A DNA stretch of 56,189 nt, from NCBI GenBank assembly GCA_003697015.1, contig RFGL01000092.1, forward strand, positions 1 to 56,189, read 5' to 3'. Position numbers and translations under genes: made by a program. This document shows, in pieces, positions 19,731-56,140 of the stretch; positions within the stretch are counted from its first letter, which is position 1, and each line of letters begins with the position of its first letter. The notes beneath the pieces were generated by a model. It saw only the letters and a program-made list of their open reading frames with translations, ran no database searches and was not told the DNA's origin. The stretch comes from Acidobacteriota bacterium (GTDB lineage Bacteria > Acidobacteriota > Thermoanaerobaculia > Multivoradales > J023).

Positions 19731-19863
19731 GCGCCGGCGCGCCGTCGGCGCGGTTCGCAGCGGGTCGTCGAGGGGCGGCGCGTGCTCGCGCCCGGTTCGC
19801 CACCTCGTGCGGGCGCGGTAGTATGGTCGGCCGCAGGAACGGTCTTCCCTGCGAGGAGAGAGG

Positions 19864-22800: not shown

Positions 22801-25680
22801 GAGGAGCTGGAGATCGCGGCGATCCTCTTCGATACCCTGCTGGCGGCGGACGAGGAGGGCAACCCCGTGCCCCTCCTCTGCCGCCGCTGGCAGGCGGCGG
22901 AGGATGGCCGTACCTTCATCCTCAAGCTGCGTCCCGACGTCCGCTTCTCCGACGGCACGCCGCTCACCGCCGGGGTGGTCAAGGCTTCCCTCGAACGCGC
23001 CGCCGGGCGCCGTCGCGATCCCCCGGCGGCCTTCCACACCCTGGTCGGCTACGACGCCTTCGTCGGCGGCTCGGCGCCGGAGATCGAGGGCATCGAGGCC
23101 CCCGCCGACGACGAGTTGCGCTTTCGTCTGAGCGAGCCCTTGCCCCTCTTCCCGGCTCTCTTGACCGCGCCGACCACCGCCATCGTCCGCCCGCGCAGCG
23201 AAGCGCAAGGGGGTGGGTTGGCCGGCACCGGCCCCTTCCGCCTGGCGCGGCGCGAGGAACGGCGCATCCTGTTGGAACGCAACCCGGCGGATTGGCGCGA
23301 GGCCAAGCCCCACCTCGAGGGCATCGAGGTGCGAACCTTCTCCGAGGCCCTCGACATCGCCAGCGGCCTGCGCGCCGGCACCATCGACGTGGCGCGGGAC
23401 CTTCTGCCCGAGGACCTCGAATCCTTGCTGCGGGATCCGCGCTGGCGTGCCGGCCTGGTCGAGGCGACGCGCAAGAACGTCTACTTCGTACTGCTCAACA
23501 CCGCCGGTCCCAGCGCGCGCCAGCTCGCCCTGCGCCGCGCCCTGGCCGGGGTCGTGCGGGTACGCGACCTGGTGTGGCGGACCCTGGGTCGCTTCGCCCG
23601 GCCGGCGGTGAGCCTGATCCCCCCCGGCGTCCTCGGCCACGATCCCGGGCGTCGCCGGCCGGTCCTCAGCCGGCAGCAGGCGCGCGAGCTGCTCGCCGGC
23701 GCCGGCCTCGAGCCGCCGATCCGCGTCCGCGCCGCCATCCATCCCCTGCTGCAGGATCGCTACGGTGGGCTGACCGCGGCACTGATCGACGAATGGGGGG
23801 CTCTCGGGGTCGAGGTCTATTTCGAGATGACGACCAGCGAGAGCTTCCACCGGGCCTACCACGACAACGCCGACGTCGATCTCCTGATCGGTCGCTGGAC
23901 CGCCGAGTACGACGATCCCGACTGCTTCACCTACGGCCTCTTCCACTCCACCGGCGGCCGCTTGCGGCGCTACTTCGCCTCCCCCGACAGCGATCGACTG
24001 CTCGAACGGGCGCGCCAGGAACGCGAGGCGATGGCGCGGGCCTGGCTCTACCAGCGCTGGGAACGCCAGCTCGACGAGGCGGCGGTGCTCCTGCCGCTCT
24101 TCCACGACGTCAACTACCGCCTGGCCCACCCCGGGGTGCGCGGGCTGGCGCTCCACAACCGGCCGCCCTACGTCAGCTACGAGACCATCTCCAAGGTGGC
24201 GGCGGACGGCGCGGCCGCCCAGCCGCCGCCGGCCCGGGGCGAGATCCACGTTCCCCTGGCGGTCAAGCTCGCCAGCCTCGATCCGCTGGCCGAAGGGCCG
24301 GTCGAGCGCTACGAAGCCGTCGCCAACGTCTTCGAGACCCTCACCCGCATCGACGAAGGGGCGCGGGTGGTTCCGGCCCTGGCGACCGCCGTCGAGCCCC
24401 TGCCAGGCGGCCGCGGCTACCGCCTGGTGCTCGCTCCGGAGGCCCGTTTTCACGACGGCAGGCCATGCACCGCGCGCGACGTCCGCCATACCTTCGAGCG
24501 CCTGCTGCGCTCGGCCCGTCGCAGCCTCCACCACCTGCTGCTGCCGATCTGCGGGGCCCGCGCGTTGCGCGACGGCAAGGCGGCCGAGCTCGCCGGCCTG
24601 CGCATCCACTCCCAGACCGAGCTGTCGATCGAGCTCGACCGGCCGCTGGCGCTCTTCCCAGCGCTCTTGAGCCACCCTGCTTTGGCGATCGTGCCCGAGG
24701 GGGAAACCTGCTTCGACGGCGATTGGCGTGCCGGTTGCGCCGGCACCGGTCCCTTCCGGGTGGTGCGGTTTACTCCCGGGGAGCGCCTCGACCTGGAGCG
24801 CAATCCCGACTACCGGCACCGCGATCTGCCGAAGAGCGAGCGCCTGGTCTTCCACCTCGGCCTGCCTTCGGAACGCATCCGCCGCGAGCTCGCCGCCGGC
24901 CGCCTGTCCCTCGCCGCCGACCTGAACGCCGCGGACGTCGAGGCGTTGCGGCGGGAGGCCCGTTTCGCCGGCGGTTACCGCGAATCGCCCCGCCTGTCGA
25001 CCTACCTGCTGGCCTTCAATACCCGTCGCGGTCCGTTCGCCGACGCCGGCGCCCGCCGCTCCCTGGCCTGGCAGCTCGACCTCGACGAGGTGCTCGCCGG
25101 CGCCGCCGGCCAGCTGGCGAGCCGCGCTCACGGCATCATCCCGCCGGGACTTCTCGGCCACGAGCCGCCGCGCCGTCCGGTGGTGGCCGCAGCACCCTCC
25201 GGTGGCGTCGCCGGCGAGCTGCGCGTCGCGGCCCTGGTCGATCCCGCCTACGCCGGTTCGTATACCGAGCTCTGGACCACCATCTGCGGCCGCCTCGAAC
25301 AGTCCGGCATCGCCGTCGAGCCGCGCTTCGGCAGTCACCCGCAGGGCGACGTCGACCTCGCCTTCGTACGCTGGGTCGCGGCCTACCCCGATCCGGACAG
25401 CTTCGCCCAGGGGCTGTTGCACAGCGAGGAGGGGCTCTTGGGCGAGCTCTGCGGCTCCCCAGAGCTCGACCGCCTGATCGCCCGCGGCCGGGAGGAGGAA
25501 GATCCTTCCCTGCGCCATGCCCTCTACCGCGAAATGGAGGAGCTCGTCGCCCGCGAGCTGCTGCTCATCCCCCTCTTCCACGAACAGACCTACCGCTTCT
25601 GCCAGCCCACCCTGCACGGCCTGCGTTTCGCCCTTACCATCCCCGAAGTGCGTTATGAAGAACTCGAGCTGGCGTCGTGA
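19864..25680 (+). CDS. Ser/Thr kinase - P-loop NTPase (STAND/AAA_16-like) - helical/TPR region - two tandem family-5 (Opp/Dpp-like) solute-binding domains
   Basis: GQGGMGVVY, HRDVKPAN, DFG, SPEQ; Walker A GEAGMGKS; GNPFF; SBP5-like segments from GGTLVTAMPRAISSLDP (about 22730, with FSDGTPLTA and GTGPF) and GEIHVPLAVKLASLDP (about 24240, with FHDGRPCTA and GTGPF). Confidence 0.88.
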   Translation: MVDPERAQRAREIAAKALGREPAQQRRLIDLACAGEPELRREVEALIAERLPLAEQPTRAVAWRHRPRRVGRYEILHQIGQGGMGVVYRARDPRLDREVAIKMLPPTELDAASEERFQREARIVAAMDHPAIVPIHDLGRHQGSIYFVMPLVTGTTLRQLIGEGSLELAEILEIGAQVAEALDYSHGRGVVHRDVKPANVMVTREEGMLRARVMDFGVAHTASAERPLTRTGDIVGTLTYVSPEQIDRPEVVDGRADLYALGAVLYECLTGRPPFTGTVQVLINRILHQEPVSLRVHGVSVDRELDDLILGCLAKDPSARPARGKELAAGLRQCAARLASGDRVVPRLDAVPRVSAEPPPPLPLVGREVELRRLREQLAAALAGECQLTLIGGEAGMGKSRLLDEALRLARTHGARVLCGRFSSRDSTFPFQGLCELIQDAFRRDPKTGTGRGGDLDVDLSDLAPGLLALFPVLSEIEEIRRAGDAAAVPAPAPRAVDDPTAVFELLARTFGRLAGGRPLVLALENLHACDVSIDALQYAVHRLGPTPTWVLGTYRHTEIEHGHPLRRLLRDFSDDPRCRHLLLEPLSQPALRQLIAQQVGGQSLRDDLVARLYEATEGNPFFTRELLASLIESGGIQRDRSGSWSLLREPGALADALPVSIHQAVEQRLERLAPELQRVLAVAAVLGRSFDYQDLEALLGETDELEETIDALVRQGILEEERKTRGDRLRFVSGIVRDILYAGIPRRRRRALHRRHARRLESRYRGREERVYAQLVHHFSEGDVPERTVTYARKLARAALEACCYEDALRVSRTALEFVDEEEVVNAATVEGDLRQIRAVAQRALGHVSRALREAERAAEILARVELWEPAARAALLAAETAWQGRQVERARRWIELGCEQARRGAAGDALKRLLTLGATVANLGGDHRQAQALLAEAEALAPPSTVPADEPVAAGGTLVTAMPRAISSLDPSDLESDEELEIAAILFDTLLAADEEGNPVPLLCRRWQAAEDGRTFILKLRPDVRFSDGTPLTAGVVKASLERAAGRRRDPPAAFHTLVGYDAFVGGSAPEIEGIEAPADDELRFRLSEPLPLFPALLTAPTTAIVRPRSEAQGGGLAGTGPFRLARREERRILLERNPADWREAKPHLEGIEVRTFSEALDIASGLRAGTIDVARDLLPEDLESLLRDPRWRAGLVEATRKNVYFVLLNTAGPSARQLALRRALAGVVRVRDLVWRTLGRFARPAVSLIPPGVLGHDPGRRRPVLSRQQARELLAGAGLEPPIRVRAAIHPLLQDRYGGLTAALIDEWGALGVEVYFEMTTSESFHRAYHDNADVDLLIGRWTAEYDDPDCFTYGLFHSTGGRLRRYFASPDSDRLLERARQEREAMARAWLYQRWERQLDEAAVLLPLFHDVNYRLAHPGVRGLALHNRPPYVSYETISKVAADGAAAQPPPARGEIHVPLAVKLASLDPLAEGPVERYEAVANVFETLTRIDEGARVVPALATAVEPLPGGRGYRLVLAPEARFHDGRPCTARDVRHTFERLLRSARRSLHHLLLPICGARALRDGKAAELAGLRIHSQTELSIELDRPLALFPALLSHPALAIVPEGETCFDGDWRAGCAGTGPFRVVRFTPGERLDLERNPDYRHRDLPKSERLVFHLGLPSERIRRELAAGRLSLAADLNAADVEALRREARFAGGYRESPRLSTYLLAFNTRRGPFADAGARRSLAWQLDLDEVLAGAAGQLASRAHGIIPPGLLGHEPPRRPVVAAAPSGGVAGELRVAALVDPAYAGSYTELWTTICGRLEQSGIAVEPRFGSHPQGDVDLAFVRWVAAYPDPDSFAQGLLHSEEGLLGELCGSPELDRLIARGREEEDPSLRHALYREMEELVARELLLIPLFHEQTYRFCQPTLHGLRFALTIPEVRYEELELAS

Positions 25681-25714
25681 CAAGGTGCCGTGACAAGGTG
25701 CCACCCTTTTTTTC
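25677..25714 (+). repeat. Left copy of the core motif (AGGTGCCACCCTTTTTTTC, 25696-25714) with a 13-bp tandem duplication GTGACAAGGTGCC
   Basis: Read directly. The duplication (25677-25689 and 25690-25702) includes the kinase stop codon. Confidence 0.85.
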
Positions 25715-25946
25715 AAAGTTGATCCTTCGTGGGGGCGAGAACAACGCGATCGGCAGCTTCGAGGTCCGCGAAGCGGTCCCGAGCAGTCTCGCTTGACCTC
25801 GGGCGGGCCCCTTGGAACGTGGCTGCCGGTTGACGAGGCCGATACCGGGCGCACGACGACGGTTTCGGCTCCGATAGGGGGAACCGGCGGCATGGTTCGG
25901 TTCGGTCGTCGGTTGGCGGATCGCTGGCCACGGAGGCCGGCTCGCC

Positions 25947-26882
25947 TCAAGGGGCGCGGATCGGCCCCGCACGTACGAATGGCTGACCGGGTGGGAAGCA
26001 GCCTTCAGGGAAGCGTACGTCGCGCTCGCCGGCGCGAAGTCGTGCAGATGCTTCGCGAAAGGCGGCGACGAAATCCGAGTAGGCTCGGCGTAAGAGTCTC
26101 AAGCTCTCGCCGCGGGCGTGAAAGTCCGGGGCCGGTGACCGGCTCAAGACCTCAGGCCGCGCATGGGGATCCTGAGCAGCGATGGCCCTCGCACCAAGAA
26201 CGGCTGTGCCGCGCTGGCGACGGTCGTCTGCGGCTTCCTGCTCAATGGTCGAAACCAGGTCAGCGACGCGTTGCCGATAGTTCTTGACCGGCAGGTGACG
26301 CCAGCAGGGCAGGGGGTCGAAAACCAGCATTTCCGGGGTGGCGTGGGCGTATGGATCGTCGTCCCGGCCACGCTGGCGGGCCTGGCATTCGGCGGTGCGA
26401 TCGAACCAGAAGCCGGTAAGGGGCCGCCCCTCGACCAGCGCCGCGGCACAATGCACGCCCGGCCAGTCGTAGGGACTTCGGACAAGGCCTTCTTTGGTGC
26501 CTTGAGACAGCACATACTTCAACCGGCGCACCTGGGTAGCTTCGTCTTGACTGACGACCACGCCGTCGTAGCGCCGGGCCCAGATCTTGTCCGACCAGCC
26601 GTGCAGCCGTCGCACTTCTTTGGCCAGCTTCGCGTTGAAGTACGCCATGAAGCGCGCCAGGCGCTCAGCGTCCTCCACCCAGGCCAGCAGGTGGTAGTGG
26701 TTCGACAGCACCGCGACCCCGCATACCGCGATCGGGTACTTGCGCTGCGCTCGCGCCAGAGCGCCGATCACGGTTTCGTTGAGCTCGCGGCTCGGCCGCA
26801 GCAGAAGGCGGCCCTGGATGGTCCGGGAGGTGATCTCCACCAGGGCGCCGCCAGGGGGGATGTAGCGTAGTTTCCTCGCCAT
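25947..26882 (-). mobile_element. HUH Y1 tyrosine transposase, REP-associated (RAYT)-like
   Basis: MARKLR...EITSRT, VLSNHYHLL (HUH), IWARRY, LKYV (candidate catalytic Tyr), DWPG, C-terminal FPEGCFPP. Lower GC than its neighbours. Confidence 0.85.
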
Positions 26883-27017
26883 AACACCCTATAGAAGACG
26901 ACCTCGCCCTCAACTTCTTCGGCGCCGCCGCGATTTCTGGTGAAGTGGCGAAGAGACGGGGCATTGGGGAAGGAGGGAAGCTGGCGAGTATTATGGGCCC
27001 GCGACATAAATTACGGA

Positions 27018-27214
27018 GCCACCTCTAGGTGGCCGATAAAAAGGGTGGCACTTGCCATGGGTCACCTTCCATGGGCACCTCCCGTGGGGGGTAAGAAGGG
27101 TGGGACCTGTGGGGGCCCGTAGGGCAGGCCATCCGTAGGGGATAAAAAGGGTGGCACCTGTGGGTGGCACCTGTGGGTGGGGATAAAAAGGGTGGCACCT
27201 GTGGGCGGCACCTG
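27018..27214 (+). repeat. Repeat cluster: hairpin GCCACCT-CT-AGGTGGC followed by 4 GATAAAAAGGGTGGCACCTG-like copies and 2 partial TGGG(T/C)GGCACCTG stutters
   Basis: Copies at 27035, 27091, 27141 and 27182; partials at 27161 and 27202. All are inverted relative to the 25696 copy. Confidence 0.9.
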
Positions 27215-27262
27215 GGGGCAGCGCCCTTGGGCAGGGCGATCCAGGGTATGCTGGGGAGAGCG

Positions 27263-30200
27263 ATGATCAAGGCCCCGGATGACGGCGACCCTGCGGGCAG
27301 CGCGCTGGCCGGCAGGAAGGAGGTTTCGCGACGGCACGGTCGCAGCCTCGCCCCCCTGGCCTGGGTGATGCTGCTGCTGGTGGTGCCGAGCCTGATCTAC
27401 GTCTTTTACGTCCTCGATCAGATCCGGGCGCTGACGGAGGGCAATCTGCGTCTCCTCGGGCGGGCCGCAACCCGCCTTGAAGCGGTTCTCGACAACGCCG
27501 CGACGACGGTGAAGAACCGTGCTCTGGACCTGCGCTTCGCCTGTGACTTCGTCGACCGCCAGCCTTACCTCACCCTGGTCGAACCCGGTCGCTGTGAGAC
27601 GTTGCAGCGCTACGGGCCGGCAGAGGTTGAGATCGAGACCCGCTACGACGCCGGCCGGGGCAGGCTCCTGCTCACCGCTGTGCCGCAGGGGGACGCCGGG
27701 TGGGAAGGCTTTTCGTTCGCCGTCGAGCTCGAACGGATCCTGCACGAGGTGCCGCTGGCGGATCACTTCGACCTCCTGCTCCTCGCCGACCGCCGGGGCG
27801 ACGTGGTGGTGCAGGTGGCGGGGGACGGCGCCGCGGGCCACGGTCTGCGCATCACCCGCATCGACAAGCTCCCAATGGTCCGCGGTGGGGAGGAGCCGCT
27901 GGCGTTTGCCGCCGTTCAACGGGCGAGCCTGGAGCGCTCGGTAGAGCTCTTCGACCGCGATCACAGGCTCTTTTGCCAGCCCTTGGCGGTGCGTGGCGGC
28001 GCGGCCGGCGCTTGGGCGTTGTGCGGCCTGGTGCGCTCCGGCGACACCTTCCAGCAGGCCCTGGTGGTCTCTCCCATCCTCACCCTGATCTTGATCCTAT
28101 TGCTGATCTTCGGCCTCCTGACCTGGCCGTTCATCAAGCTCTTCTCCCTCGACCGCCGCGAGCGCTTCCGCTTTGCCGACGGCTTCCTCCTCCTCTTCTG
28201 CACCTTCGTGTTGCTTCTGCTCCTCACTCTACTGACCTCCGAGTGGGATAGCGGCAAGCGTCTGCACGAGGCCACCGAGACGAGCCTCGAGGTGCTGGCT
28301 GCCGAGCTCGAAGAGGATCTGCTCGCTGAGCTCAACCGGCTCTACGACCAGGTGGTGGCCTTCGATCGGCATCTGTGCGCGCAGCGGATGGAGCTCGACG
28401 TCTGCGGCCTCAAGGAGGACGCCAACCTGCTCGATCCGAAGAGGCCGCCGGCTGCGTTTCGCCTGCCACGACCGGCGATCGAGGACTTCAGCTCGGTATT
28501 CTGGATGCGACCTTGCGACGGCTTGCAGATCGCCAAGGCGACGGTGCGCAGCAAGAACACGCCGGCGGTCCGGCTGGGGCACCGCGAGTACTTTCGCACC
28601 CTCGCCGAGGGCCGGTCTTGGAGGGTCGGCTCGCCCCCGGACGAGGAGCGCCGGTTCTTCGTCCAGGCGTTCCGCTCGGTGACCACCGGCGAGCGCGGTG
28701 CGGCCTTGTCCATCCGTTCCTGCCTGAGCGATCCCGGCGGCGTCGCCGAGCTGACCAAAGGAGAGGACTGCCGCCTGCCCCCCTGTCGATCGGCCGGCGT
28801 GGTGGTTGCCGCGATCAGCGCCCCCTTGGCTTCGGTCGACCGCGTCCTGACGGGACCGGACTTCGGCTTCGCCATCGTCGAGCCGGGAGGCGGGGTGCTC
28901 TTCCACAGCGATCGGCGGCGGGCGCTGGACGAGAATCTGCTGCTGGAGGTCGACGATTCCAAGCGCTTGAACGCAGCGCTGTCGGCGCGGATCCCGCGCT
29001 CCTTGCGCATGCGGTATCACGGGCGCCCGCATCTTCTCCACGCGGCGCCGCTGCGCGATCTGCCGTGGTCGGTGGTCACCTTCGTCGACCGCGAGCTGCT
29101 GCGGACGACGAGCATCGAGGCCCTCGCCCTGAGCCTGGTGCTGGCCGCCGCGTATCTGGTACCGCTGCTGCTCGGATCGATCGCCTTCGCCCTGATCGCC
29201 GGCCGCGAAGCGAGCTGGCTGTGGCCGGATCCCGCCAAAGAGCGGCTCTATCGCCATCTGAGTTGGATCTTCGCTCAGCTGCTCCTGGCCTTTACCCTGG
29301 CGCTCTACGCCCTGCCGGCGGAGAGCGCGCTGTTGGCGGCGTTCACCATGCCTTTGATGGCGGCGCTCATCGCCTGGTTGCGGCTCATGGCGTGGAAGCT
29401 TCGCCACCGCCGCAATGCGACTCTCTGGCGCGCGTTGGACCTCTTTTCGGTACCGTTGCTCCTGCTGCTCCTGATTCTCGGCCTGGTCGCCCTCAAGCTG
29501 GCGAATCTGTCGTTGTCCTGGCGCGATCCGTGGTTGGTCGGTCCCTTCGTCGGCATGCTGATCCTCACCGCGCTCTACCTGCTGATCCACGGCTGGCGCG
29601 ACTTCAGCCGGCCGTGGCGCTACCGGGTCAACTGGCTCGCCTGGCATTGCACGGCGATCGTCCTTTTTTGGCTGCTGCTGGCGGTGTGGCCGGCGGTCGG
29701 CTTCTTCAAGATCGCCTTCGTCAGCCAGCAGCGGGTGTTGGTCAAGCACGAGAACCTGCACCGCGCCGAGGGCGTCCGCCAGCTGGCGTGTGCGCTCGAA
29801 GACGAGCTGCGCGACGTCGCCATGCCGGATCGCGACGCGAGTCTGAACCGGCGTCTCGCGGCAGCGCGCCACCGCCATCGCCCCCACATGCTGGCGGCGC
29901 TTCACCCGGGCGGCGATCCGCCGGAGGTTTCCGACGTCGGCAGCTGGTTCGATCGAGGGCTGCGCGATCTCCTGGCGCGCTATCAGCCGCTCTACAACCG
30001 CACCACCGAGAGCCAGCGCTACCTGCTGGGGACCCGAGCAGCCGACGGAGCCTGGGAATGGCGTGGAGGCTTGGAGGGGGGCGGCGACGGCGCCATGCGT
30101 TTTCACGCTCGAGCCGGCCCCTGCCAGCGCCGGGACCTCTCCCTGGTCTCCGTTCTGCCGGTCCCCGGCCACCGGCTGACCTGGCGACTGGCAGCGGGCG

Positions 30201-31333
30201 GGGCGATCTTGATCCTGCTCCTCGCCGCCTGGGTCCGCTACTCCGCTCGACGGCTCTTCTTCGCCGCCGTCGAGGGGCAGGTGGAGCGCCTCGGGGTGGC
30301 GCAATTGGTGCGTGGCGAGCTGCCGGTCAACACCATCGCGCTCCTCGCATCCCCTCGTGACCGGCAGCTGCTGGTGGCGTCGAAGAACTACGACGTGGTC
30401 GACCTCGAGCGGCCCGTGGCCCGCGCCCAGTGGCTGGGCGGGCTCGACCACGAGGACCGCAAGCCGGTGGTCTGCGAGCATTTCGAAGACGGTCTGGCGG
30501 ACGCGGGGGTGCGGCGATTCAAGCTCGAGGTGCTGGAAAGCCTGGTCTACGCCGAGCATCGCCGGGTGCTGATCCTGTCCACCGTCGATCCCTATGAAGC
30601 GCTGCTGCGCTTCCACCACGGGGCCGGACCGGAAGCCGCCGGCGGCGCGGGGGACGACCTGGGCGACGACGAGGCCGGGCGCTGGAGTCGTCTTCTCAGT
30701 CACTTCGTGCTCAAGCCGGTGGGGCTCGACCGGCAATCCGCCGGCGCCGAGGAGGGCGATTCTCACGACGGTGAGACGTCCCTCAGCGTTCGGGTGGAGC
30801 GCGAGCTGGGGGCCACGGTCCACCTGCGGCGCTTGGTGCAGAGTGACCTGGCGAGCTTTGACAACCTGAGCCAGCGGGAGCTTCTGGAGCGGATCGTCGA
30901 CGCCGCGGAAGGCTACTACTGGGCGCTGTGGAACGCCTGTTCGGAGGACGAGAAACTGGTGCTGGTGCAGCTGGCGCAAGAGACCTTCGTCAATCCGAAG
31001 CAGCACAGCACCGTGCGGCGGTTGCTCCAGCGCGGTCTGATCGTGCGCGATCCGGTCCTGCGTTTGATGAACGATAGCTTCACACTCTTCGTCCATCGCA
31101 TCCAGCAGCCCAAGGAGGTAGCGCGCTGGGAACGCTCGCTGCGCGGTCTGGGCTGGAAGCAGCTGCGCCTCGCCTTCATCGCTCTGCTGGCGGTGGTGGC
31201 CCTCTTCCTTTTCTCCACCCAGCGCGGCTTGTTCGACGCCACCATCGGCTACGTCTCCGCCCTGGCGGTCGGCATCCCCGGCCTGATCCAGCTGCTGCGC
31301 ACGCTCTATGCCGCCGGCCGCACCGGCGGTTGA
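27263..31333 (+). CDS. Large multi-pass membrane protein with Cache-like extracytoplasmic domains and a C-terminal degenerate NTPase/winged-helix-like region
   Basis: GGGGAG RBS before ATG at 27263, many TM segments, HREYF, FAIVEPGGGVLFHSD, LPWSVVTF (Cache-like), C-terminal YYWALWNACSEDEK...LLQRGLI. Confidence 0.7.
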   Translation: MIKAPDDGDPAGSALAGRKEVSRRHGRSLAPLAWVMLLLVVPSLIYVFYVLDQIRALTEGNLRLLGRAATRLEAVLDNAATTVKNRALDLRFACDFVDRQPYLTLVEPGRCETLQRYGPAEVEIETRYDAGRGRLLLTAVPQGDAGWEGFSFAVELERILHEVPLADHFDLLLLADRRGDVVVQVAGDGAAGHGLRITRIDKLPMVRGGEEPLAFAAVQRASLERSVELFDRDHRLFCQPLAVRGGAAGAWALCGLVRSGDTFQQALVVSPILTLILILLLIFGLLTWPFIKLFSLDRRERFRFADGFLLLFCTFVLLLLLTLLTSEWDSGKRLHEATETSLEVLAAELEEDLLAELNRLYDQVVAFDRHLCAQRMELDVCGLKEDANLLDPKRPPAAFRLPRPAIEDFSSVFWMRPCDGLQIAKATVRSKNTPAVRLGHREYFRTLAEGRSWRVGSPPDEERRFFVQAFRSVTTGERGAALSIRSCLSDPGGVAELTKGEDCRLPPCRSAGVVVAAISAPLASVDRVLTGPDFGFAIVEPGGGVLFHSDRRRALDENLLLEVDDSKRLNAALSARIPRSLRMRYHGRPHLLHAAPLRDLPWSVVTFVDRELLRTTSIEALALSLVLAAAYLVPLLLGSIAFALIAGREASWLWPDPAKERLYRHLSWIFAQLLLAFTLALYALPAESALLAAFTMPLMAALIAWLRLMAWKLRHRRNATLWRALDLFSVPLLLLLLILGLVALKLANLSLSWRDPWLVGPFVGMLILTALYLLIHGWRDFSRPWRYRVNWLAWHCTAIVLFWLLLAVWPAVGFFKIAFVSQQRVLVKHENLHRAEGVRQLACALEDELRDVAMPDRDASLNRRLAAARHRHRPHMLAALHPGGDPPEVSDVGSWFDRGLRDLLARYQPLYNRTTESQRYLLGTRAADGAWEWRGGLEGGGDGAMRFHARAGPCQRRDLSLVSVLPVPGHRLTWRLAAGGAILILLLAAWVRYSARRLFFAAVEGQVERLGVAQLVRGELPVNTIALLASPRDRQLLVASKNYDVVDLERPVARAQWLGGLDHEDRKPVVCEHFEDGLADAGVRRFKLEVLESLVYAEHRRVLILSTVDPYEALLRFHHGAGPEAAGGAGDDLGDDEAGRWSRLLSHFVLKPVGLDRQSAGAEEGDSHDGETSLSVRVERELGATVHLRRLVQSDLASFDNLSQRELLERIVDAAEGYYWALWNACSEDEKLVLVQLAQETFVNPKQHSTVRRLLQRGLIVRDPVLRLMNDSFTLFVHRIQQPKEVARWERSLRGLGWKQLRLAFIALLAVVALFLFSTQRGLFDATIGYVSALAVGIPGLIQLLRTLYAAGRTGG

Positions 31334-31356
31334 CGACGGCGTTGTAAGCTGCCGGC

Positions 31357-32310
31357 ATGCGCGCGCTCTACCTCGGGCCGGAAGGGTTGGTGGTCCGCCG
31401 GGATCATCCGCGTCCCGCGCCTCGGGAGGGCGAGGCCTTGATCCGTTTGCTGCGGGCGGGGATCTGTTCGACCGACCTGGAGCTGGTCAAGGGCTATGCC
31501 GGCTTTCACGGGGTCTTGGGGCACGAATTCGTCGGGGTGGTGGAAGAACCAACCGGGGGCGACTGGGCCGGCAAGCGGGTGGTGGGGACCATCAACCTCG
31601 GCTGCCGGCGCTGCCCCACCTGCATCGGCGACGGGCCGGAGCACTGTCCCGAGCGTACGGTGCTGGGCATCGCCGGCCACGACGGTGCGTTCGCCGACTA
31701 CCTCACCCTGCCCGTGGCCAATCTCCTGGTCGTGCCGGACGAGGTCGACGACGACGTCGCCGTCTTCACCGAGCCGCTGGCCGCGGCGCTGCGCATCCGC
31801 GACCAGGTGGCGGTCGAGCCTTCGGCGCGGCTGGCGGTGGTGGGGCCGGGGCGACTGGGGCTGCTGATCGCCCAGGTCCTGGCCTTGACCGGCAGTCGGC
31901 TGGTAGTCCTCGGCCGCCGCGCCGCCTCCCTCGAGCTGCCGCGGCAGCTGGGATTGCAGGTCGGCCTGAGCACCGAGGCTCCGGCCGACGCCTTCGATCT
32001 GGTGGTCGAGGCGACCGGCAACGAGGCCGGCCTCGCCGAGTCCCTGCGCCTGGTGCGGCCGTGCGGCACCCTGATCCTGAAGAGCACCTTCCACGGCGCG
32101 GCGACCGTCGACCTGACCAAGCTGGTGGTCGGCGAGGTGCGGATCGTCGGCTCGCGCTGCGGTCCATTCGCTCCCGCCCTGCGCCTGCTGGCGTCAGGGT
32201 CCGTCGCCGTGCGGCCGCTGATCGACGGTCGCTATCCCTTGGAGCGCGGGCTCGAGGCCATGGCCCACGCCGCCCGCCCCGGGGTGCGTAAGATCCTGCT
32301 CGACCCCTGA
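31357..32310 (+). CDS. Zinc-binding medium-chain alcohol dehydrogenase family protein
   Basis: GICSTD, GHEFVG, CRRCPTC...C, EPLAAA, GPGRLG. Confidence 0.92.
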   Translation: MRALYLGPEGLVVRRDHPRPAPREGEALIRLLRAGICSTDLELVKGYAGFHGVLGHEFVGVVEEPTGGDWAGKRVVGTINLGCRRCPTCIGDGPEHCPERTVLGIAGHDGAFADYLTLPVANLLVVPDEVDDDVAVFTEPLAAALRIRDQVAVEPSARLAVVGPGRLGLLIAQVLALTGSRLVVLGRRAASLELPRQLGLQVGLSTEAPADAFDLVVEATGNEAGLAESLRLVRPCGTLILKSTFHGAATVDLTKLVVGEVRIVGSRCGPFAPALRLLASGSVAVRPLIDGRYPLERGLEAMAHAARPGVRKILLDP

Positions 32311-32320
32311 GAGGGGGCCC

Positions 32321-32530
32321 GAAAAAAAGGGTGGCACCTGCTCGGTCGCTGAAAAAAGGGTGGCACCTGTCCACCGCGCGGTCCGCGGTCGGCGGCGGAC
32401 CAGCAGCGGCTGGCCGAAAAAAGGGTGGCACCTGGATCGGTCGCCGGCCAGTCGCCGAAAAAAGGGTGGCACCTGGATCGGTCGCCGGCCAGTCGCCGAA
32501 AAAAAGGGTGGCACCTGGATCAGGTACCTG
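32321..32530 (+). repeat. Array of five GAAAAAA(A)GGGTGGCACCTG repeats with 10/46/22/22-nt spacers
   Basis: Copies at 32321, 32351, 32416, 32457 and 32498, then an ACCTGGATCAG stutter. Lies between convergent genes. Confidence 0.92.
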
Positions 32531-32532
32531 GA

Positions 32533-34080
32533 TCAGTCGCTGGCCAGCAGGGTGGTGCCGAGCTCGGCGCGCGGTCCGGGGTCGGCGGACCAGCAGCGGC
32601 AGGTCTCGCTTCGATCACAGGGCTGGGCCGGCGGCAGCGCGAAATGCGCGGCTCTGAGATCGTCGAGCGTGAGCCCACCGGGATCGCTTTTGACGACCAA
32701 GGGTGCTTCGCTGATCAGCTCGCTGCTTCGGGTGTCGAGCCAGACGCGCGTCAGGCTCCGCCCGGCGGCGGCAAGGTCGAGGCAGAAGGCGGCCGGCTCG
32801 CCTTCTTCATCCAGCTGCCACACAAGGTGCAGGCTGGCTTTGAGCTTGGTGTCGTCGACGCCGAGCTGCTCGGCGAGCTCCTGTTTGGCCCGCTTGAGAG
32901 CGCTTCGCACGAAGCTCTTGCTGGCACCATCGAGGATGCCGAGATCGATTCCCGGCTGGCAGAGCGGCAGCTCGGCCCAGTCGACGACCAGCTCGCTGCG
33001 CCAGCGCAGCAGCCGATTGCGCATGTCGATCTCGAAGAGGGTGGGCAGCGCCGGGCAGACGAGCGGCAGGCCGGTGGGGATTTTCAATCCTTTGGGGATC
33101 TCGATCGAAAGGTAGTCGCCGCCGGCGTAGGTGAGACTCACCGCTCCGACCGCGTCGCCGAATACCTTGGCCTGCCCGTCGATGCTGAGACCGGCGCCCT
33201 CATTGCTCAGACGGATGGCCGTTTTCGCTTCAAGCTGGAAGACGTCCAATCGGCTCTGATCGGGGAAGAGGGGTTTCAGCACCTCGGCCCTCGGCACGCT
33301 GAAGTGAAAATCGAATGGGAAAGCCGGCGTCAATCGATCGCTCGTAGCCGACGAGAACGCGTCTTCGTCCAGATCGACGAGCATCTCGCAATCCGGGTCT
33401 TCGGGCGCCACTTCGTCACCGCAGGCGGAAAAGGGCGACGCCACGACGAGCTTGGGTTGGTCGATCCGTAGCCCCAGGGCATCGACTTCCGCCTTTCCGC
33501 GCAGTCGCACCCAGCCCGTACATTCTTCGTCGTCCGTGCGGCAGGCGGGATCGATGGTGATGGCGCCGCTGCTTTGACCGGAAAGCGCCTGCCCCGTCGC
33601 CGCCAGAACGATGCGTTCGTCCGCTTCCTTGCCCGCGGCCCGCCACACGATTCTCCGGCCACCCTTTCCGGCACGGACCTCGAGGCCGATGCAGTCGCCC
33701 GCCATCTCGTTGTTGTCGAGGTCGCAATCGTCCAGCTCGACGTTGCCCTCAGTGCCGCGCAGGCGATAAGAGAAGCGATCGTTAGTCTTCGCCAAGGAGG
33801 TCGCCGAGATCGTCCACCCCCTATCTTCCACGCGCTCGATCTTCCGCAATGCTTGACGGGCGAGATCGATCTTGTGTTTCAGCGAGTCTGATCGTTCGAA
33901 GGCGAGCCGCGCCTCCTCCTCCAGATAGGGTTGCAGTTGGCGGATCGGTGCCCGGCGGGAGTAGTCGTAGGCTACGGCCGCGGCGAGCACCAGGAGCACG
34001 CCTCCGACCGCCGCCAGAAGCATCCGGCGGGTACGACTCCGCTCATCGGCCGGAACTGACGGATGATTCTTGCTGCGCAT
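32533..34080 (-). CDS. Hypothetical membrane-anchored Cys-rich protein
   Basis: Long ORF, N-terminal TM helix (MLLAAVGGVLLVLAAAVAY), multiple Cys, lower GC. Start 34080 or 34131. Confidence 0.6.
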   Translation of the reverse strand: MRSKNHPSVPADERSRTRRMLLAAVGGVLLVLAAAVAYDYSRRAPIRQLQPYLEEEARLAFERSDSLKHKIDLARQALRKIERVEDRGWTISATSLAKTNDRFSYRLRGTEGNVELDDCDLDNNEMAGDCIGLEVRAGKGGRRIVWRAAGKEADERIVLAATGQALSGQSSGAITIDPACRTDDEECTGWVRLRGKAEVDALGLRIDQPKLVVASPFSACGDEVAPEDPDCEMLVDLDEDAFSSATSDRLTPAFPFDFHFSVPRAEVLKPLFPDQSRLDVFQLEAKTAIRLSNEGAGLSIDGQAKVFGDAVGAVSLTYAGGDYLSIEIPKGLKIPTGLPLVCPALPTLFEIDMRNRLLRWRSELVVDWAELPLCQPGIDLGILDGASKSFVRSALKRAKQELAEQLGVDDTKLKASLHLVWQLDEEGEPAAFCLDLAAAGRSLTRVWLDTRSSELISEAPLVVKSDPGGLTLDDLRAAHFALPPAQPCDRSETCRCWSADPGPRAELGTTLLASD

Positions 34081-34260
34081 GATAAGCTCCAGTTCAGTTT
34101 CTTGTTCATGTTCTTGGTTGGCGATCGGCAATGAAAATTCTTGTCTCGCCGGATGACGCCATCTTTCACCGGGGACGGCTCGATCGCGGCCAAGCCTCCG
34201 GCCACGTCGCTCTCGTCGCTCACGTCGTGTGTGATCCTTGATATGCTAGCATCGGTCCAG

Positions 34261-34325: not shown

Positions 34326-35138
34326 GTGAGCCAAGCCGCCTCCGACCTCGCCCGCGAGCCGCGTGAGGTGGCGTTGCCGCGGTTGCTGGAGGCCGAGGGC
34401 GGGCGGCTCTACGGTCTCGCCCGTCGGCTCTGCGGCGACCCGGAGGACGCAGCCGACCTGGTGCAGGAGATCTTCCTCATCGCCTGGCGCAAGTGGCACC
34501 AGTTTCAGGGCGCTGCCAAGCCGACCACCTGGCTCTACACCATCGCCTCCCGCGCCTGCCTGCGGCGCAAGCGACGGCGGGCCGGCGAGCCGCGCACCAT
34601 CGCTTCTTTGGATGCCCTGCTGCCGTCCGGCGAGCCCCAGGTGCCGGATCTGCCGTCGCCGGCGGAGAGCCCCCTCCACGACAGCCTGCGGCGCGAGGCG
34701 CGGGCGGCGGTGGAGCGGGCGATCGCCACCCTGCCGGTCCACTTCCGCCTGCCCCTGGTGCTGAAGGAGATCGTCGAGTTGCCGATCGCCGAGGTGGCGG
34801 CGATCCTCGGGCTCAAGCCGGCGACGGTCAAGACCAGGGTCCACCGCGGCCGCCTGTTGCTGCGCAAGGCCCTCGCCGAAACCCTCCCCAACGTCGACGC
34901 CCCGCCGCCCGACCATCCCCGCCGGATGTGCCTCGACCTGCTGCATGCGAAGCAGGAAGCCCTCGACCGCGGCGTGCCCTTCAACGTCCCGGAGAGCGAG
35001 CTCTGCCGCCGCTGCCAGGCCCTCTTCGCCACCCTCGACCTGAGCCGTGAGATCTGCCACGACCTCGGCCGCGGCGAGCTGCCGCCGGTCCTCCGTCGGG
35101 AGCTTCTCGCCGCCTTCGGCGCGCGACGCGAAGACTGA
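34326..35138 (+). CDS. ECF sigma factor with Cys/His-containing C-terminal extension
   Basis: DAADLVQEIF, TWLYTIA (region 2); EVAAILGLKPATVKTRVHRGR (region 4); extension CLDLLH...CRRC...CHD. Confidence 0.88.
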   Translation: MSQAASDLAREPREVALPRLLEAEGGRLYGLARRLCGDPEDAADLVQEIFLIAWRKWHQFQGAAKPTTWLYTIASRACLRRKRRRAGEPRTIASLDALLPSGEPQVPDLPSPAESPLHDSLRREARAAVERAIATLPVHFRLPLVLKEIVELPIAEVAAILGLKPATVKTRVHRGRLLLRKALAETLPNVDAPPPDHPRRMCLDLLHAKQEALDRGVPFNVPESELCRRCQALFATLDLSREICHDLGRGELPPVLRRELLAAFGARRED

Positions 35139-35324: not shown

Positions 35325-35957
35325 ATGTTGAGCCCATCCCAAGGCCGCCCGTCCGGCGCTGATGCCGTGGAGGAGGAGCCTGCGCTGCTCGCCGAGACCG
35401 GCACGCGCCAGCTGCTGGCCCAGGCCAGGAAGGGTGACGAGCAAGCCCTCGATCGCCTCTTCCGTCGTTATCTCCTCCCCCTCCAGCGCTGGTCGCGCGG
35501 CCGCCTGCCCGGCTGGGCGCGGGATCTCCTCGACACCGACGACCTGGTGCAGGAGACCCTGTTGCGCACGGTGCGCGGCGTCGGCGGGTTCGACCCCCGT
35601 CATTCCGGCGCTTTTCAGGCCTACCTGCGCCGAGCCATCGAGCACCGCATCTGCGACGAGGTACGCCGCGTCGCCCGCCGTCCGGCCGCCGGCGGCACCC
35701 TGTCGCGCGCCGCCGACCCGCGACCGACCCCCTTGGACGAAGCGATCGGCTCCCAGGTCCGGGAGCGCTACGAGGCGGCGCTCGCCACCTTGAAGCCCAA
35801 GGTGCGCGAGGCGGTGCTGGCCCGCCTCGAGCTCGGTTTCAGCTACGCCCAGGTGGCCGAGGCGGCGGGCTACCCTTCCCCCGACGCCGCCCGCATGGCG
35901 GTGAGTCGCGCTCTCCTACGCCTGGCCTCGGTGATGGCGGACGAGGGGCGGGGATGA
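35325..35957 (+). CDS. ECF sigma factor, kinase-associated type
   Basis: DTDDLVQET, FQAYLR, SYAQVAEAAGYPSPDAARMAVSRA. ATGA overlap with the kinase gene. Start uncertain. Confidence 0.88.
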   Translation: MLSPSQGRPSGADAVEEEPALLAETGTRQLLAQARKGDEQALDRLFRRYLLPLQRWSRGRLPGWARDLLDTDDLVQETLLRTVRGVGGFDPRHSGAFQAYLRRAIEHRICDEVRRVARRPAAGGTLSRAADPRPTPLDEAIGSQVRERYEAALATLKPKVREAVLARLELGFSYAQVAEAAGYPSPDAARMAVSRALLRLASVMADEGRG

Positions 35958-38698
35958 GCCGTCGGGACCAGCGCCGTTTGATGGAGGTCGCCTCGGCGGT
36001 GGCGGACGGCACCACCGTCGACTGGCAGGATGCCGCCGACGCCGTCCGCGACGGGCACCAGCGCGCCACCCTCGAGGCGCTCCGGCAGCTGGCCCGGATC
36101 CGCGACCTCCACCGCACCCTGCAGGGGGAGCCTTCCGCGCCGGAGGCCGGCGACGCCGCCCCTTCCCACCCCAGCGCCCGCCGCCCGGTTCCCGAGCGCT
36201 GGGGTGGCTTCGAGATCCTCGACCAGATCGGCGAAGGCTCCTTCAGCGAGGTCTTCCGTGCCCGCGACCGGGCCCTCGACCGCGAGGTCGCCCTGAAGCT
36301 CTTCCGCGCCGACGTCCCCGGCGCCCGCTTCCGCTCCCTGTCGGTGATTCAGGAAGGCCGCCTCCTCGCCCGCGTCAAGCACCCCAACGTGGTCACCATC
36401 TACGGCATCGACCGGGTCGACGGCCGCATCGGCCTGTGGATGGAGCTCGTCCGCGGCAAGACCCTGGCCCAGCTGGTGCAGGAGCAGGGCCCGTTCGGTG
36501 CTGCCGAAGCCGCCGTGATCGGCATCGATCTGTGCAGAGCCTTGGCCGCCGTCCACGCCCAAGGCATCGTCCACCGCGACGTCAAGGCGCAGAACGTGAT
36601 GCGCGAAGAAGGCGGCCGCATCGTCCTGATGGACTTCGGCATCGGCATCGAAGCCGCCACCCAGCCGCGAAGCTCGAGCTCGATCTCCGGCACGCCCCTC
36701 TACCTGGCGCCGGAGGTCTTGTTCGGCGGCGAAGCGACCCGCCGATCGGACCTCTACAGCTTGGGGGTGCTGCTCTTCTATCTGGTATCGGCGACCTATC
36801 CCGTCCGAGCCGCTACGTGGGCGAGCCTCGTCGCCCGACACCGCGAGGGTGCGTACTCGTCGCTGCGCGGCGTACGACCGATCCTGCCGGAAGGTTTCGT
36901 CGCCTGCGTTGAACGCGCCCTCGCCGCCGCGCCGAGGGACCGGGTGCGGTCGGCCCCGGCTCTGGAGCGTTGTCTGGTCGAATCGTCGCGGGGCGGACGC
37001 AGGAAGGACGCTGCGGGGACCGCGGCAGCCGTCCTCCTCGCCGCCGCGGCGGTCATCGCCGTGGTGCTCTTCTTCTTCCAGCCCTCGCCGGAGAGGAGCC
37101 CGGCCGAGGGGAAGAGGCCCCCGGCCGTGGCTGCGGACCCGGCGATCGACCAGAGCATCGCCCTCGCCGTGCCGCCGTTTCAGCTCGCCAGCGGCGGTTC
37201 CGGCGGCGACCGCGCCGCCAGGCGGATCGAGACCACGGCGCTCCAAGTGCTGAGCGAGTCGCCGTTCTTGGAGATCCTCAAGGAAGAGTCCCCCGGCAGC
37301 GTCTCGAGGGCGGAACTGCGGTTGATCGTCACCGGCTCGCTGGATCGAGGCGCCGAGCTCGACGCTCAGCTCCTGGCGCTCGACGGCAACCGACTCCTGC
37401 ACGCGAGCACCTTGAGCATCGCCGACACGGTTCCCCTGGACTCGTCGATCCGCGACTTCATCTTGCCCTTCCGCCTGGCGATCGAAATCCGCGCCGCCGG
37501 CTTGGAGTCCGAGGAACGGACCATCCACAGCCTCAAGACCGGTTCCGCCGTGGCCTATCTCCTGTACAAGCAGGCGCAGCACTACAACGACGCCTATCAA
37601 TACGAGGAGGCGGTCGAAGCGCTCCTGCGGGCCACCGAGCTCGACGCCTGCTTCGCCCATGCCTTCAGCCTCCTGGCCAATTCCTTCCACGTCCTCGGCC
37701 ATCGCGACGAAGCTCTGCGGGCGATCAACCGGGCGGTCGAATGTGCGAGCCCGCTCACCGAGATCGAGCAGCTGGAGCTCAGGCGGCGGCGGGCCCAGCT
37801 CGAGTGGAATACCGCGGAAGAAGAGGCCCTGCTGCAGAAGATGCTGGCCTTGAGCCCCCTGTCCGCCGAGGCCCACGCCCGCCTCGGTTGGTTCTATCTG
37901 ACCCACCGTCGATCCTGCCCCGAGACCCTGGCCGAGCTGGAACGGGCGGTGGAGCTCGATCCCTCTCGCTGGCGCCTTCTCGGCCTGCTGGTGGAGGGGT
38001 ACCTCGCCTGCCGTGCGCCGGCTGAGGCCTTCGCCATTCTCGACGACAACGAAGCGCTCTATCGAGGAAGACCGCACTATCACTTCAGCCGCGGGCAGGC
38101 CTATCTCGTCACCGGCGCCGCCGAAGACGCCATCGCGGCCTTCCGGCGCGCCGTCGAGCTGGATCCCTCCTATCCTCCGGCTCTCCTCGGACTGGGGGAC
38201 GCCCACGCCTTCCGCGCCCTGGCGAGCGGCGGCGATCCGGCGCGTTCGACGGACCTGCGGCGTGCGCTCGAGGTCTACGCCGAGGTCGGGCAGGGGGCCT
38301 ATGGCATCGACGACAAGAAGGAAGCCTTCTGGCGCAGCGCCAGGGCGTGGGTGCTCCTCGGCGAGCCGGAGAACGCCGAAGACTTCGCCCGCCGGGCCCT
38401 CGACGTCGACCCGCAGATGCTTCGCGCCCACTGGGCCCTCGGCGCCGCGGCGCTCCTGCGCTCCGACGCCGCCGCAGCGGCGCGACGGGCGGCGGCGGCC
38501 GAAGAGATCGCGAGCCGCCGCCGGAGTCTCTACGAGGGCGAATGGCCGCGCCTGCTGCGCGCGTCGATCCTCGCCCGGCAGGGCCGGCCGGAGGAGGCGA
38601 GGCGGCTGCTGGCCGAAACCCTTCCCTGGGCGTCCCTGGAGACGCCTTTCGTCACCTATTCGATGGAGCGTCTGGGCACCAATCGAGACGAGTTTTGA
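35954..38698 (+). CDS. Membrane Ser/Thr protein kinase with C-terminal TPRs
   Basis: GEGSFSEVF, HRDVKAQN, DFG, GTPLYLAPE, one TM helix (VLLAAAAVIAVVLFFF), TPR-like helices. Confidence 0.9.
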   Translation: MSRRDQRRLMEVASAVADGTTVDWQDAADAVRDGHQRATLEALRQLARIRDLHRTLQGEPSAPEAGDAAPSHPSARRPVPERWGGFEILDQIGEGSFSEVFRARDRALDREVALKLFRADVPGARFRSLSVIQEGRLLARVKHPNVVTIYGIDRVDGRIGLWMELVRGKTLAQLVQEQGPFGAAEAAVIGIDLCRALAAVHAQGIVHRDVKAQNVMREEGGRIVLMDFGIGIEAATQPRSSSSISGTPLYLAPEVLFGGEATRRSDLYSLGVLLFYLVSATYPVRAATWASLVARHREGAYSSLRGVRPILPEGFVACVERALAAAPRDRVRSAPALERCLVESSRGGRRKDAAGTAAAVLLAAAAVIAVVLFFFQPSPERSPAEGKRPPAVAADPAIDQSIALAVPPFQLASGGSGGDRAARRIETTALQVLSESPFLEILKEESPGSVSRAELRLIVTGSLDRGAELDAQLLALDGNRLLHASTLSIADTVPLDSSIRDFILPFRLAIEIRAAGLESEERTIHSLKTGSAVAYLLYKQAQHYNDAYQYEEAVEALLRATELDACFAHAFSLLANSFHVLGHRDEALRAINRAVECASPLTEIEQLELRRRRAQLEWNTAEEEALLQKMLALSPLSAEAHARLGWFYLTHRRSCPETLAELERAVELDPSRWRLLGLLVEGYLACRAPAEAFAILDDNEALYRGRPHYHFSRGQAYLVTGAAEDAIAAFRRAVELDPSYPPALLGLGDAHAFRALASGGDPARSTDLRRALEVYAEVGQGAYGIDDKKEAFWRSARAWVLLGEPENAEDFARRALDVDPQMLRAHWALGAAALLRSDAAAAARRAAAAEEIASRRRSLYEGEWPRLLRASILARQGRPEEARRLLAETLPWASLETPFVTYSMERLGTNRDEF

Positions 38699-55644: not shown

Positions 55645-55666
55645 GCTTCCCCTTCCCCTCCCTCAA

Positions 55667-56140
55667 AGGTCCCACCCTCTTCACAACTCCTTGCGGCTCA
55701 ATGAATTAGTGCTGCCCGTAAGGTGCCCCCCGGCCCGTGAGGTGCCCCTGAGGTTGCCCCTGACGTGGTTGCCCCGCCCCTGGCCCTGCCCCTGAGGTGC
55801 TGCCCCTGAGGTGCCACCCTCTTCGCTGCTGCCCCCTGAGGTGCCACCCTCTTCGCAAGTTGTTGCCCCCTTAGGTGCCCCTTAGGTGCGGTGCCCCTTA
55901 GGTGCTGCCCCCCTTAGGTGCCACCCTCTTCGCAAGTTGTTTCGAATGAGGTAGTTACTCGTGCTGGTTTGGATTGATTGTGACGTCAGACTTGACCGTA
56001 TGCCTCACGCCGTCCCTGCTGTGAGAGCCCAAGAGGTCCCCAAGGGTCGCGAGGTCTCCACTCCGAAGGTCCCACCCTCTTTGCGGCCACTCCCCATAAG
56101 GTCCCACCCTCTTCGCAACTCCTTACGCATCAACGAATTA
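55667..56140 (+). repeat. Cluster of six AGGT(G/C)CCACCCTCTT copies, many CCCCT(G/T)AGGTG stutters and three 25-bp imperfect palindromes
   Basis: Core at 55667, 55809, 55839, 55916, 56067 and 56099; same 12-mer as the transposase-flanking repeats. Confidence 0.9.

Follow-up and report, generated by a model that had tools for sequence, protein, structure and literature searches.

How does an array of short direct repeats and unique-looking spacers come to lie between two convergent genes, and is it related to the arrays of clustered regularly interspaced short palindromic repeats (CRISPR) that it resembles at first sight? This question is raised by positions 32321-32517 of a stretch of 56,189 nucleotides (nt; contig RFGL01000092.1 of assembly GCA_003697015.1, the whole of which we call the window) from G000, a Thermoanaerobaculia-like metagenome-assembled genome (MAG) of 5.34 Mb in 500 contigs with a G+C content of 71.5%. 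The window also encodes P0001, a transposase of the Y1 (HUH) type, and the ends of the P0001 gene carry the same repeat as the array. Our work suggests that the array probably consists of solo copies of the ends of an element of the REPtron/TIRtron type and that it grew by duplications across the junction between repeat and flank. Since its spacers are small local copies of the adjoining DNA, it would be a look-alike of a CRISPR array and not an immune memory.

The array consists of five copies of GA6-7GGGTGGCACCTG, all on the plus strand: repeat 1 (GAAAAAAAGGGTGGCACCTG) at 32321-32340 with the 10-nt core GGGTGGCACC at 32329-32338, repeat 2 at 32351-32369, repeat 3 at 32416-32434, repeat 4 at 32457-32475, and repeat 5, the copy that adjoins the native flank, at 32498-32517. 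The repeats are 19-20 nt long, and the spacers between them measure 10 nt (S1, 32341-32350), 46 nt (S2, 32370-32415), 22 nt (S3, 32435-32456) and again 22 nt (S4, 32476-32497), exactly as given in the initial annotation of this DNA. S4 is identical to S3, and repeat 3 with S3 and repeat 4 with S4 form an exact 41-nt tandem duplication. For the 17-mer AAAAAGGGTGGCACCTG, 10 matches with at most two mismatches are present in the window as compared to 0 in 100 shuffles. Repeat 5 is followed at 32518-32536 by a re-copied junction: TGGATCAG is succeeded by a sixth, partial unit, GTACCTGGATCAG at 32524-32536 (GTACC plus TGGATCAG, period 13), in which the last bases of the core and the first 8 bases of the flank are written again. 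The array occupies the gap that separates the stop codons of a zinc-type alcohol dehydrogenase-like gene (31357-32310, plus strand) and of a convergent gene on the minus strand (32533-34131, 532 amino acids, without assigned function and without a Pfam or NCBIfam match); the stop codon of the latter (32533-32535) is held by the second TGGATCAG copy of the partial unit.

The spacers can be traced to the DNA immediately to the right of the array, i.e. to 32531-32603 on the plus strand. S3 and S4 are a copy of the flank at 32531-32547 plus TCGCC: 15 of 17 positions are identical, and 16 out of 2000 random windows score as well. S2 corresponds to 32568-32603 within the coding sequence of the minus-strand gene, with 34 of 39 alignment columns identical and one 3-nt gap that represents an insertion in the spacer; the alignment score of 53 is matched by 6 of 2000 random windows, and the ungapped match amounts to 82% over 33 nt. 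The shortest spacer, S1, matches 32533-32541 weakly (8 of 9 identical), a place also matched by S3, and this is not significant alone (333 of 2000 random windows). The C-terminus of the minus-strand protein (CWSADPGPRAELGTTLL) aligns with the ends of two distant homologs from other genomes, CWSGDEGPRTDLFGTIL and CWNGDEGPKTDLFGSIL; thus, the spacers were copied from the end of the gene and not the reverse. The alignment identifies S2 as a decayed extragenic copy of the codons for R-C-W-S-A-D-P-G-P-R of this gene. Both proposals made earlier for the origin of the spacers, i.e. that the 46-nt spacer matches the 3' end of the gene and that the identical 22-nt spacers resemble the region at 32531, are therefore borne out by these comparisons.

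A pseudo-core, GGGTGGTGCC, is located inside the minus-strand gene at 32550-32559, 33 nt from the true junction; it is identical to the core at 8 of 10 positions and encodes G-T-T-L of the conserved C-terminus. Three routes to S2 were considered and rejected, namely a simple junction-anchored copy, an exchange of the core with this pseudo-core, and a duplication followed by a deletion: none of them reproduces the first 7 nt of the spacer.

The repeat belongs to a family that is spread over the genome. The core GGGTGGCACC occurs in 121 copies as compared to 4 for the reversed control, and these copies group into 52 clusters that are one-directional for the most part. The core sites are mostly intergenic; the gene contexts were classified with a crude GC3-based caller of open reading frames (ORFs), which is noisy and supports qualitative statements. 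Many of the clusters sit near contig ends, judged from their positions in the cluster list. The repeat comes in two forms, a short one in which C|GA4-7 precedes the core, and a long one in which the core is preceded by CTCATTCGAAACAACTTGYGAAGA; the sister cores GGGTGGGACC and CCCTGGCACC have an identical layout. A third cluster of the window (55668-56100, minus strand) is of the long form, with CTCATTCGAAACAACTTGCGAAGA plus the core, GGGTGGGACC variants, and junction re-copying as elsewhere. Only two genomes are rich in the exact 13-mer AAAGGGTGGCACC, namely G000 with 75 copies and G025, which belongs to another family in the same order, with 16; it was not found in two genomes of the same genus. 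An Rfam scan of 25400-33000 returned no family at an E-value of 1 or better.

Two further observations concern the surroundings of these cores. In the long-form cluster (window 55558-56189, and contigs C352, C392 and C466 of G000) the core is preceded by a conserved stretch of at least 100 nt (containing GGGACGGCGTGAGGCATACGGTCAAG and ending in CTCATTCGAAACAACTTGYGAAGA) that is common to several short contigs; tandem re-copies of the flank such as TGACGGGCA follow the core, and GGGTGGGACC sister cores lie alongside. This cluster may be a larger non-autonomous element. Moreover, contigs C21 and C247 end in pure 21-nt tandem arrays (GGGTGGCACCCGGCGAGAAAA) and contigs C348 and C482 in 19-nt arrays (GGGTGGCACCTCGAGAAAA). 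They are probably long minisatellites at which the assembly broke off, and they would connect the two contigs of each pair.

The partial unit beside repeat 5 has many counterparts. At 43 of the 121 cores (36%), ACC and the next 6 nt of the flank recur within 60 nt, as compared to 0-1.3% for ten out of eleven control motifs; the remaining control, TGCCACC, reached 5.2%, which we explain by the fact that this motif overlaps the core when the latter is read on the reverse strand. The anatomy of these events is as follows: Of 32 simple duplications, 15 have a re-copied unit that begins at GCACC and 21 have one that begins within the range from GCACC to TGGCACC, and the length of the match approximately equals the period, so that the joints are formed without microhomology. 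CA terminates eight of the 15 units that begin at GCACC, and the base after the core is T in 84 of 119 copies. Seen from the complementary strand, the joints often have the sequence GGTGC|TG, with a C|T step. The same anatomy was observed at 11 of the 16 cores in G025. The initial annotation had called for an examination of other arrays for locally derived spacers, and these were indeed found at the 43 cores of G000 as well as in the arrays of G025.

Two of the arrays in G025 deserve to be described individually. In the first (L060, G025:C6:157300-160700), a copy of about 165 nt of the 3' end of the upstream gene lies between two cores, and this copy begins, as read by eye, at a TG^CACCTAC pseudo-site within the gene; a Y1 homolog is located 1.3 kb off, and the core beside this homolog is a variant, GAAAAGGGTGCC, whose flank is re-copied in turn. 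In the second (L063, G025:C6:142900-143500), an array of the core repeat is found about 75 nt downstream of a sequence that by eye is tRNA-like (ending in TTCGAGTCCGGCCTTCGGCACCA), and its partial units faithfully keep the GGTACC variant of the parent core.

The gene to which the repeat belongs encodes P0001, a RAYT-like protein (RAYT stands for REP-associated tyrosine transposase, REP for repetitive extragenic palindromic) of 311-313 amino acids at 25947-26888 on the minus strand, with a conserved start methionine at 26882. Its match to Pfam Y1_Tnp is at the border of recognition: The whole protein scores 21.8 bits (E 2.2e-4), below the cut-off of 23 bits, and in the genome search 23.9 bits, slightly above it. 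The active site residues are well conserved, since an alignment of 12 homologs shows no variation at H64 and Tyr125 and very little at N63 and H66 of the SNHYH motif; the tyrosine motif of P0001 reads YVLSQG, and a C-terminal FPEGCFPP motif is conserved as well. The structure model (pLDDT 79.5) has its best match in the Protein Data Bank (PDB) with 4ER8, the REP-bound RAYT (TnpA-REP) of Escherichia coli (E 1.1e-4, TM 0.62 on the target), and the next Foldseek matches are the ISDra2, IS200 and IS608 transposases. With an HUH motif and a catalytic tyrosine on a predicted IS200-type fold, P0001 is assigned to the Y1 HUH superfamily. A helix-turn-helix (HTH) domain was not detected at an E-value of 1e-3 or better, Pfam giving Y1_Tnp only, and no TnpB partner was seen beside the gene.

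P0001 is the sole member of its family found in G000, and its gene is flanked on either side by inverted copies of the repeat that both point outward. The downstream end (25676-25711, minus strand, with the repeat at 25695-25711) consists of A7-GGGTGGCACC followed by TTGTCAC, GGCACC and again TTGTCAC, and adjoins the stop codon of a gene for a kinase of 1952 amino acids. The upstream end (27038-27218, plus strand, with the repeat matches at 27038-27201) is an array in its own right, with full and partial cores and with TGT and TGTGGGTGGGGAT re-copied. The short, non-palindromic GA4-7 GGGTGGCACC repeat forms the outward-facing inverted ends of the P0001 gene. Another Y1 gene, of the classical type (about 148 amino acids, PF01797 with E 1.5e-28), is present elsewhere in the genome (G000:C254:3000-4010) next to a tandem array with a period of about 123 nt and the hairpin GCCCGGGGTTGAAACCCCGGGC; the core is absent there, and this is a separate, conventional REP-like system.

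The association between gene and repeat extends to the relatives. Homologs of P0001 with 41-56% identity are encoded in 34 of 40 related genomes, where the family is multi-copy, unlike in G000, with up to 55 matches per genome; the named records are from Acidobacteriota, chiefly from Thermoanaerobaculia MAGs. Outward-pointing TGGCACC is found on both flanks within 500 nt at 12 of the 24 full-length named loci, as compared to 1 of 24 for the inward control, and such ends were also seen on the homologous genes at L003 and L004. The distance from the upstream end to the gene is exactly 52 nt in seven loci, six of which come from one MAG. Junction re-copying was detected at 11 of the 24 loci; together with the data from G000 and G025 this supports the earlier proposal that the array grew by copying neighbouring DNA. 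The similarity of the proteins does not track the motif: the closest homologs in the related genomes are those of G027, G039 and G029, and the 13-mer is abundant only in G000 and G025. Among all named records, the closest homolog (72% identity) is encoded on a contig of 1235 nt that is labelled Planctomycetota (L013, RFGH01000103.1), a label that could reflect mis-binning or horizontal transfer; of the other named relatives (41-58% identity), two carry the label Rickettsiales and one the label Deltaproteobacteria, and all the rest are Acidobacteriota.

How might the array have been formed? We suggest that one end-copy landed 2-3 nt past the stop codon of the minus-strand gene and that tandem duplications across the boundary between the repeat and its right flank then enlarged the array on the spot, one after another. 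As such duplications span this boundary, each new unit would consist of a full or left-truncated repeat and a stretch of the flank, and these stretches would be the spacers, which later diverged by point changes and indels. That this course of events accounts for the array is likely in our judgement, and the array probably has no dedicated cellular function. It is tempting to speculate that P0001 itself writes the neighbouring DNA into the array, one unit of end and flank per cycle, although we hold this part of the model only tentatively. The enzyme would cut single-stranded DNA inside the core, and a 3' end would then be lengthened over the cut or transferred to its other side, which would leave a short stretch in two copies. 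On the top strand, a cut at GGGTG^GCACC might allow strand-displacement synthesis over a short distance, after which the displaced end is ligated again, with the result that GCACC and the adjacent flank are duplicated; in this scheme the left boundary is fixed, the right one varies and the joints are free of microhomology, in agreement with the observations. In terms of the complementary strand, the T-run strand might be cut at GGTGC| and joined to, or extended over, a loosely specified |TG site 6-50 nt into the flank. Full-unit copies such as the exact 41-nt pair, as well as the long pure arrays, may have expanded later through ordinary slippage. According to the accessible text of one study (PMC8266576), HUH enzymes leave a 5'-phosphotyrosine and a free 3'-OH that can prime synthesis or attack the covalent link, and E. 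coli TnpA-REP cleaves at C|T, the attacking strand requiring a 3' C. By analogy, the C|T step at the new joints resembles the joint that is cut and rejoined by the E. coli enzyme. The idea that an HUH enzyme built the array had already been put forward in the initial annotation: the only gene of this Y1 family in the genome, which lies between inverted repeats, and the site-specific joints without microhomology agree with it, and the building role itself is plausible but unproven.

Several observations weigh against this interpretation. The link between the enzyme and the duplications is drawn from sequence comparisons, and we would put the chance that the Y1 nuclease starts the duplications somewhat below even. 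Y1 enzymes normally need a hairpin and a GTAG foot. The repeat has neither, the fold of the array as single-stranded DNA is not exceptional (z -1.84), and the core GGGTGGCACC allows only GGTG/CACC pairing around a 1-nt centre, with GTGG present and no stem after it. The match of P0001 to NCBIfam REP_Tyr_transpos has an E-value of 2.3e-12, which favours the link to the RAYTs, but its 47 bits are below the cut-off of 80. In G004, a genome that is 93% complete, there are 5 copies of the 13-mer, and our search found no P0001 homolog. The partial units in G025 start 3-6 nt from the junction, which points to a preference for the breakpoint and not to a strict site. As soon as two copies are present, slippage or unequal exchange could give rise to units with a full repeat (k 10-20) and to the pure tandem arrays of 19 and 21 nt. 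Finally, the first 7 nt of S2 are left unexplained, and since this spacer is not contiguous with the junction, an additional deletion or the capture of a fragment is needed.

Some of these points are shared by an explanation that dispenses with the enzyme: the repeat might be an ordinary dispersed element or a protein-binding site, and its arrays the product of slippage, fork stalling or unequal sister exchange, without any role of a Y1 protein. The exact 41-nt pair and the pure contig-end arrays are typical of slippage, and the preferred rather than fixed breakpoint fits this view. However, enzyme-independent instability does not readily account for first duplications that lack microhomology, for the rate of 36% at the core as compared to 1.3% or less at 10 of 11 control motifs, for a left boundary that clusters at G^GCACC in 15 of 32 cases, or for the similar behaviour of the ends of homologous Y1 genes in other genomes, and we regard it as unlikely. 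A function at the 3' ends of genes must also be considered: on the minus strand the repeat reads GGTGCCACCC followed by a T-run, which might serve as a terminator or as an mRNA-stabilising element, as has been proposed for REPs. In this orientation the array places T-runs and two terminator-like hairpins just past the minus-strand gene (32528-32510 and 32375-32359, as compared to 0.5 ± 0.7 such sites in shuffles), the repeat begins a few nt from a stop codon at two loci of the window, and the RNA fold of the minus strand has a z-score of -3.7. Yet most copies have no hairpin whatsoever, they occur in both orientations relative to the neighbouring genes and in some cases upstream of genes (as far as the crude gene calls tell), and a function of this kind would leave the locally derived spacers unexplained; we find it quite improbable.

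The presence of TGGCAC, the -24 element of sigma-54 promoters, in every core and of rpoN in the genome might suggest an array of promoters or enhancer-type sites. But GC at the spacing of the -12 element follows in 18 of 119 copies (15%) against a background of 13.9%, a TTGCW-like -12 element in 0 of 119, and the array points into a convergent gene; with GG-N10-GC at background level and TTGCW missing from all 119 copies, the promoter reading was rejected and has next to no chance of being right. A CRISPR-like adaptive array, or an artefact of assembly, is suggested by the layout of repeats and spacers, by the frequency with which repeats break short-read assemblies, and by the many clusters near contig ends. 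CRISPR repeats measure roughly 23-55 nt, and the lengths of repeats and spacers are near-constant in such arrays. Here, in contrast, repeats of 19-20 nt alternate with self-derived spacers of 10-46 nt, and the repeat is common to about 50 loci. A scan of 12 ORFs between 18.6 and 42.8 kb detected no cas family, and Cas1 is encoded only on other contigs (C378, C240 and C194). CRISPR-like immunity was rejected on the grounds of repeat length, spacer length, the self origin of the spacers, the spread over multiple loci and the lack of adjacent cas genes. Thus, from the earlier description as a CRISPR-like architecture without cas genes, the layout and the lack of cas families among the nearby ORFs stand, and the analogy does not go beyond appearance.

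The reality of the array was checked with the Logan contigs of one public DNA run (X1), which contains 94% of the sampled words and is possibly the source sample; it was the only run listed with this sequence, and no RNA run was among the matches. These contigs tile the array exactly and without conflict (32324-32442, 32413-32463, 32434-32483, and 32475 onward), and the contig that covers the S3/S4 unit has a depth of 47 as compared to 26-32 alongside. The initial annotation had named an assembly artefact as one outcome that would overturn it: The consistent tiling speaks against such an artefact, even if X1 may be the source itself, although the whole array is spanned by no single contig and the contigs do not resolve heterogeneity at the level of reads. 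Taken together, an adaptive array or an artefact has only a very slight chance. A metagenome scan with a locus-specific 18-mer gave 108 stretches; as none of the 80 that were fetched had an A-run core or a second core, these are chance matches, and the scan yielded no further sample of the locus.

If the array is made of solo ends that grew by junction-spanning duplication, its closest relatives should be sought among mobile elements. As in the REPtrons, which combine a TnpA-REP/RAYT gene with REPs or bacterial interspersed mosaic elements (BIMEs; E. coli YafM, 4ER8), a Y1 HUH gene that is single-copy in G000 is flanked by inverted short repeats, this repeat is scattered through intergenic DNA in many copies that often form clusters, 4ER8 is the best structural match, and the C|T step follows the core in 71% of the copies. 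Unlike in a REPtron, the repeat forms no palindromic hairpin, nor does it have a GTAG/GTGG foot with a stem, the clusters are direct instead of being REP/iREP pairs, and P0001 is about twice as long, with its conserved C-terminal FPEGCFPP region; moreover, its NCBIfam score does not reach the cut-off, most relatives have more than one gene of the family, and the tyrosine motif is YVLSQG and not Y---NP, the latter as given in the accessible part of PMC6006769.

The TIRtrons are RAYT-like genes with terminal inverted repeats (TIRs) instead of hairpins (Di Nocera 2013, PMC3733652), and, as far as the accessible text of these papers goes, some TIRs form dispersed families of singles, dimers or groups, and a distinct group from Acidobacteria has been described (PMC3733652, PMC6006769). 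P0001 is in accordance with a TIRYT/TIRtron, its RAYT-like gene being bounded by non-hairpin terminal inverted repeats. In the available sections of Quentin 2018 (PMC6006769), subclass 2.1 of TnpAY1 is characterized by GGGGWSAS in the TIR and a C-terminal HTH (Bac_DnaA_C, HTH_23 or HTH_28), whereas the core GGGTGGCACC is by eye not an exact GGGGWSAS and no HTH was detected in P0001; the motifs of class 3 given there, NHVH and YV..EQ, differ from SNHYH and YVLSQG. By analogy, the system would work like a REPtron, and it resembles the TIRtrons even more.

With the IS200/IS605 elements (IS608, ISDra2) it shares the Y1 HUH fold as well as multi-copy behaviour, with ends at a fixed distance (-52, 7 loci), in relatives of which the ACID-4 MAG is one example. 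The glutamine four residues after the tyrosine of P0001 corresponds to the Y127/Q131 arrangement of IS608. The ends, however, are inverted repeats and not two different subterminal hairpins on one strand, and a TnpB partner was not seen beside the P0001 gene. CRISPR arrays share the direct repeats that alternate with unique-looking spacers, but differ in the lengths of repeats and spacers, in the origin of the spacers, in cas linkage and in the distribution of copies. In the consulted literature, i.e. the accessible text without supplements, we found no description of junction re-copying at REP, TIR or Y1 ends or of spacers derived from genes.

The remainder of the window contains a few features beside these subjects. 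The kinase gene that ends next to P0001 encodes a kinase-AAA-SBP_bac_5 fusion of 1952 amino acids (19822-25680), genes for sigma factors of the extracytoplasmic function (ECF) type are located at 34326-35138 and 35325-35957, with the gene for a Ser/Thr kinase that contains TPR repeats after them (35954-38698), and a 69-nt tandem repeat at 47755-48016 (3.8 copies, 97% identity) is unrelated to the core family.

The arrays record their own growth: they preserve where a copy starts, most often at G^GCACC, how far it runs into the flank, and that the joints lack microhomology. With such a record, a question that was vague can be put directly to the bench, in terms of cleavage and strand transfer at defined sites. 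The arrays are also of practical relevance, as they mimic CRISPR visually, break short-read assemblies and can place decayed copies of coding sequence in intergenic DNA. If the enzyme does write the flank into the array, this would provide a concrete and testable mechanism for the growth of clusters of the REP, BIME and TIR type, and it would show that repeat-spacer arrays can be assembled in nature without Cas proteins, by a nuclease that draws on the DNA next to them and even on pieces of coding sequence.

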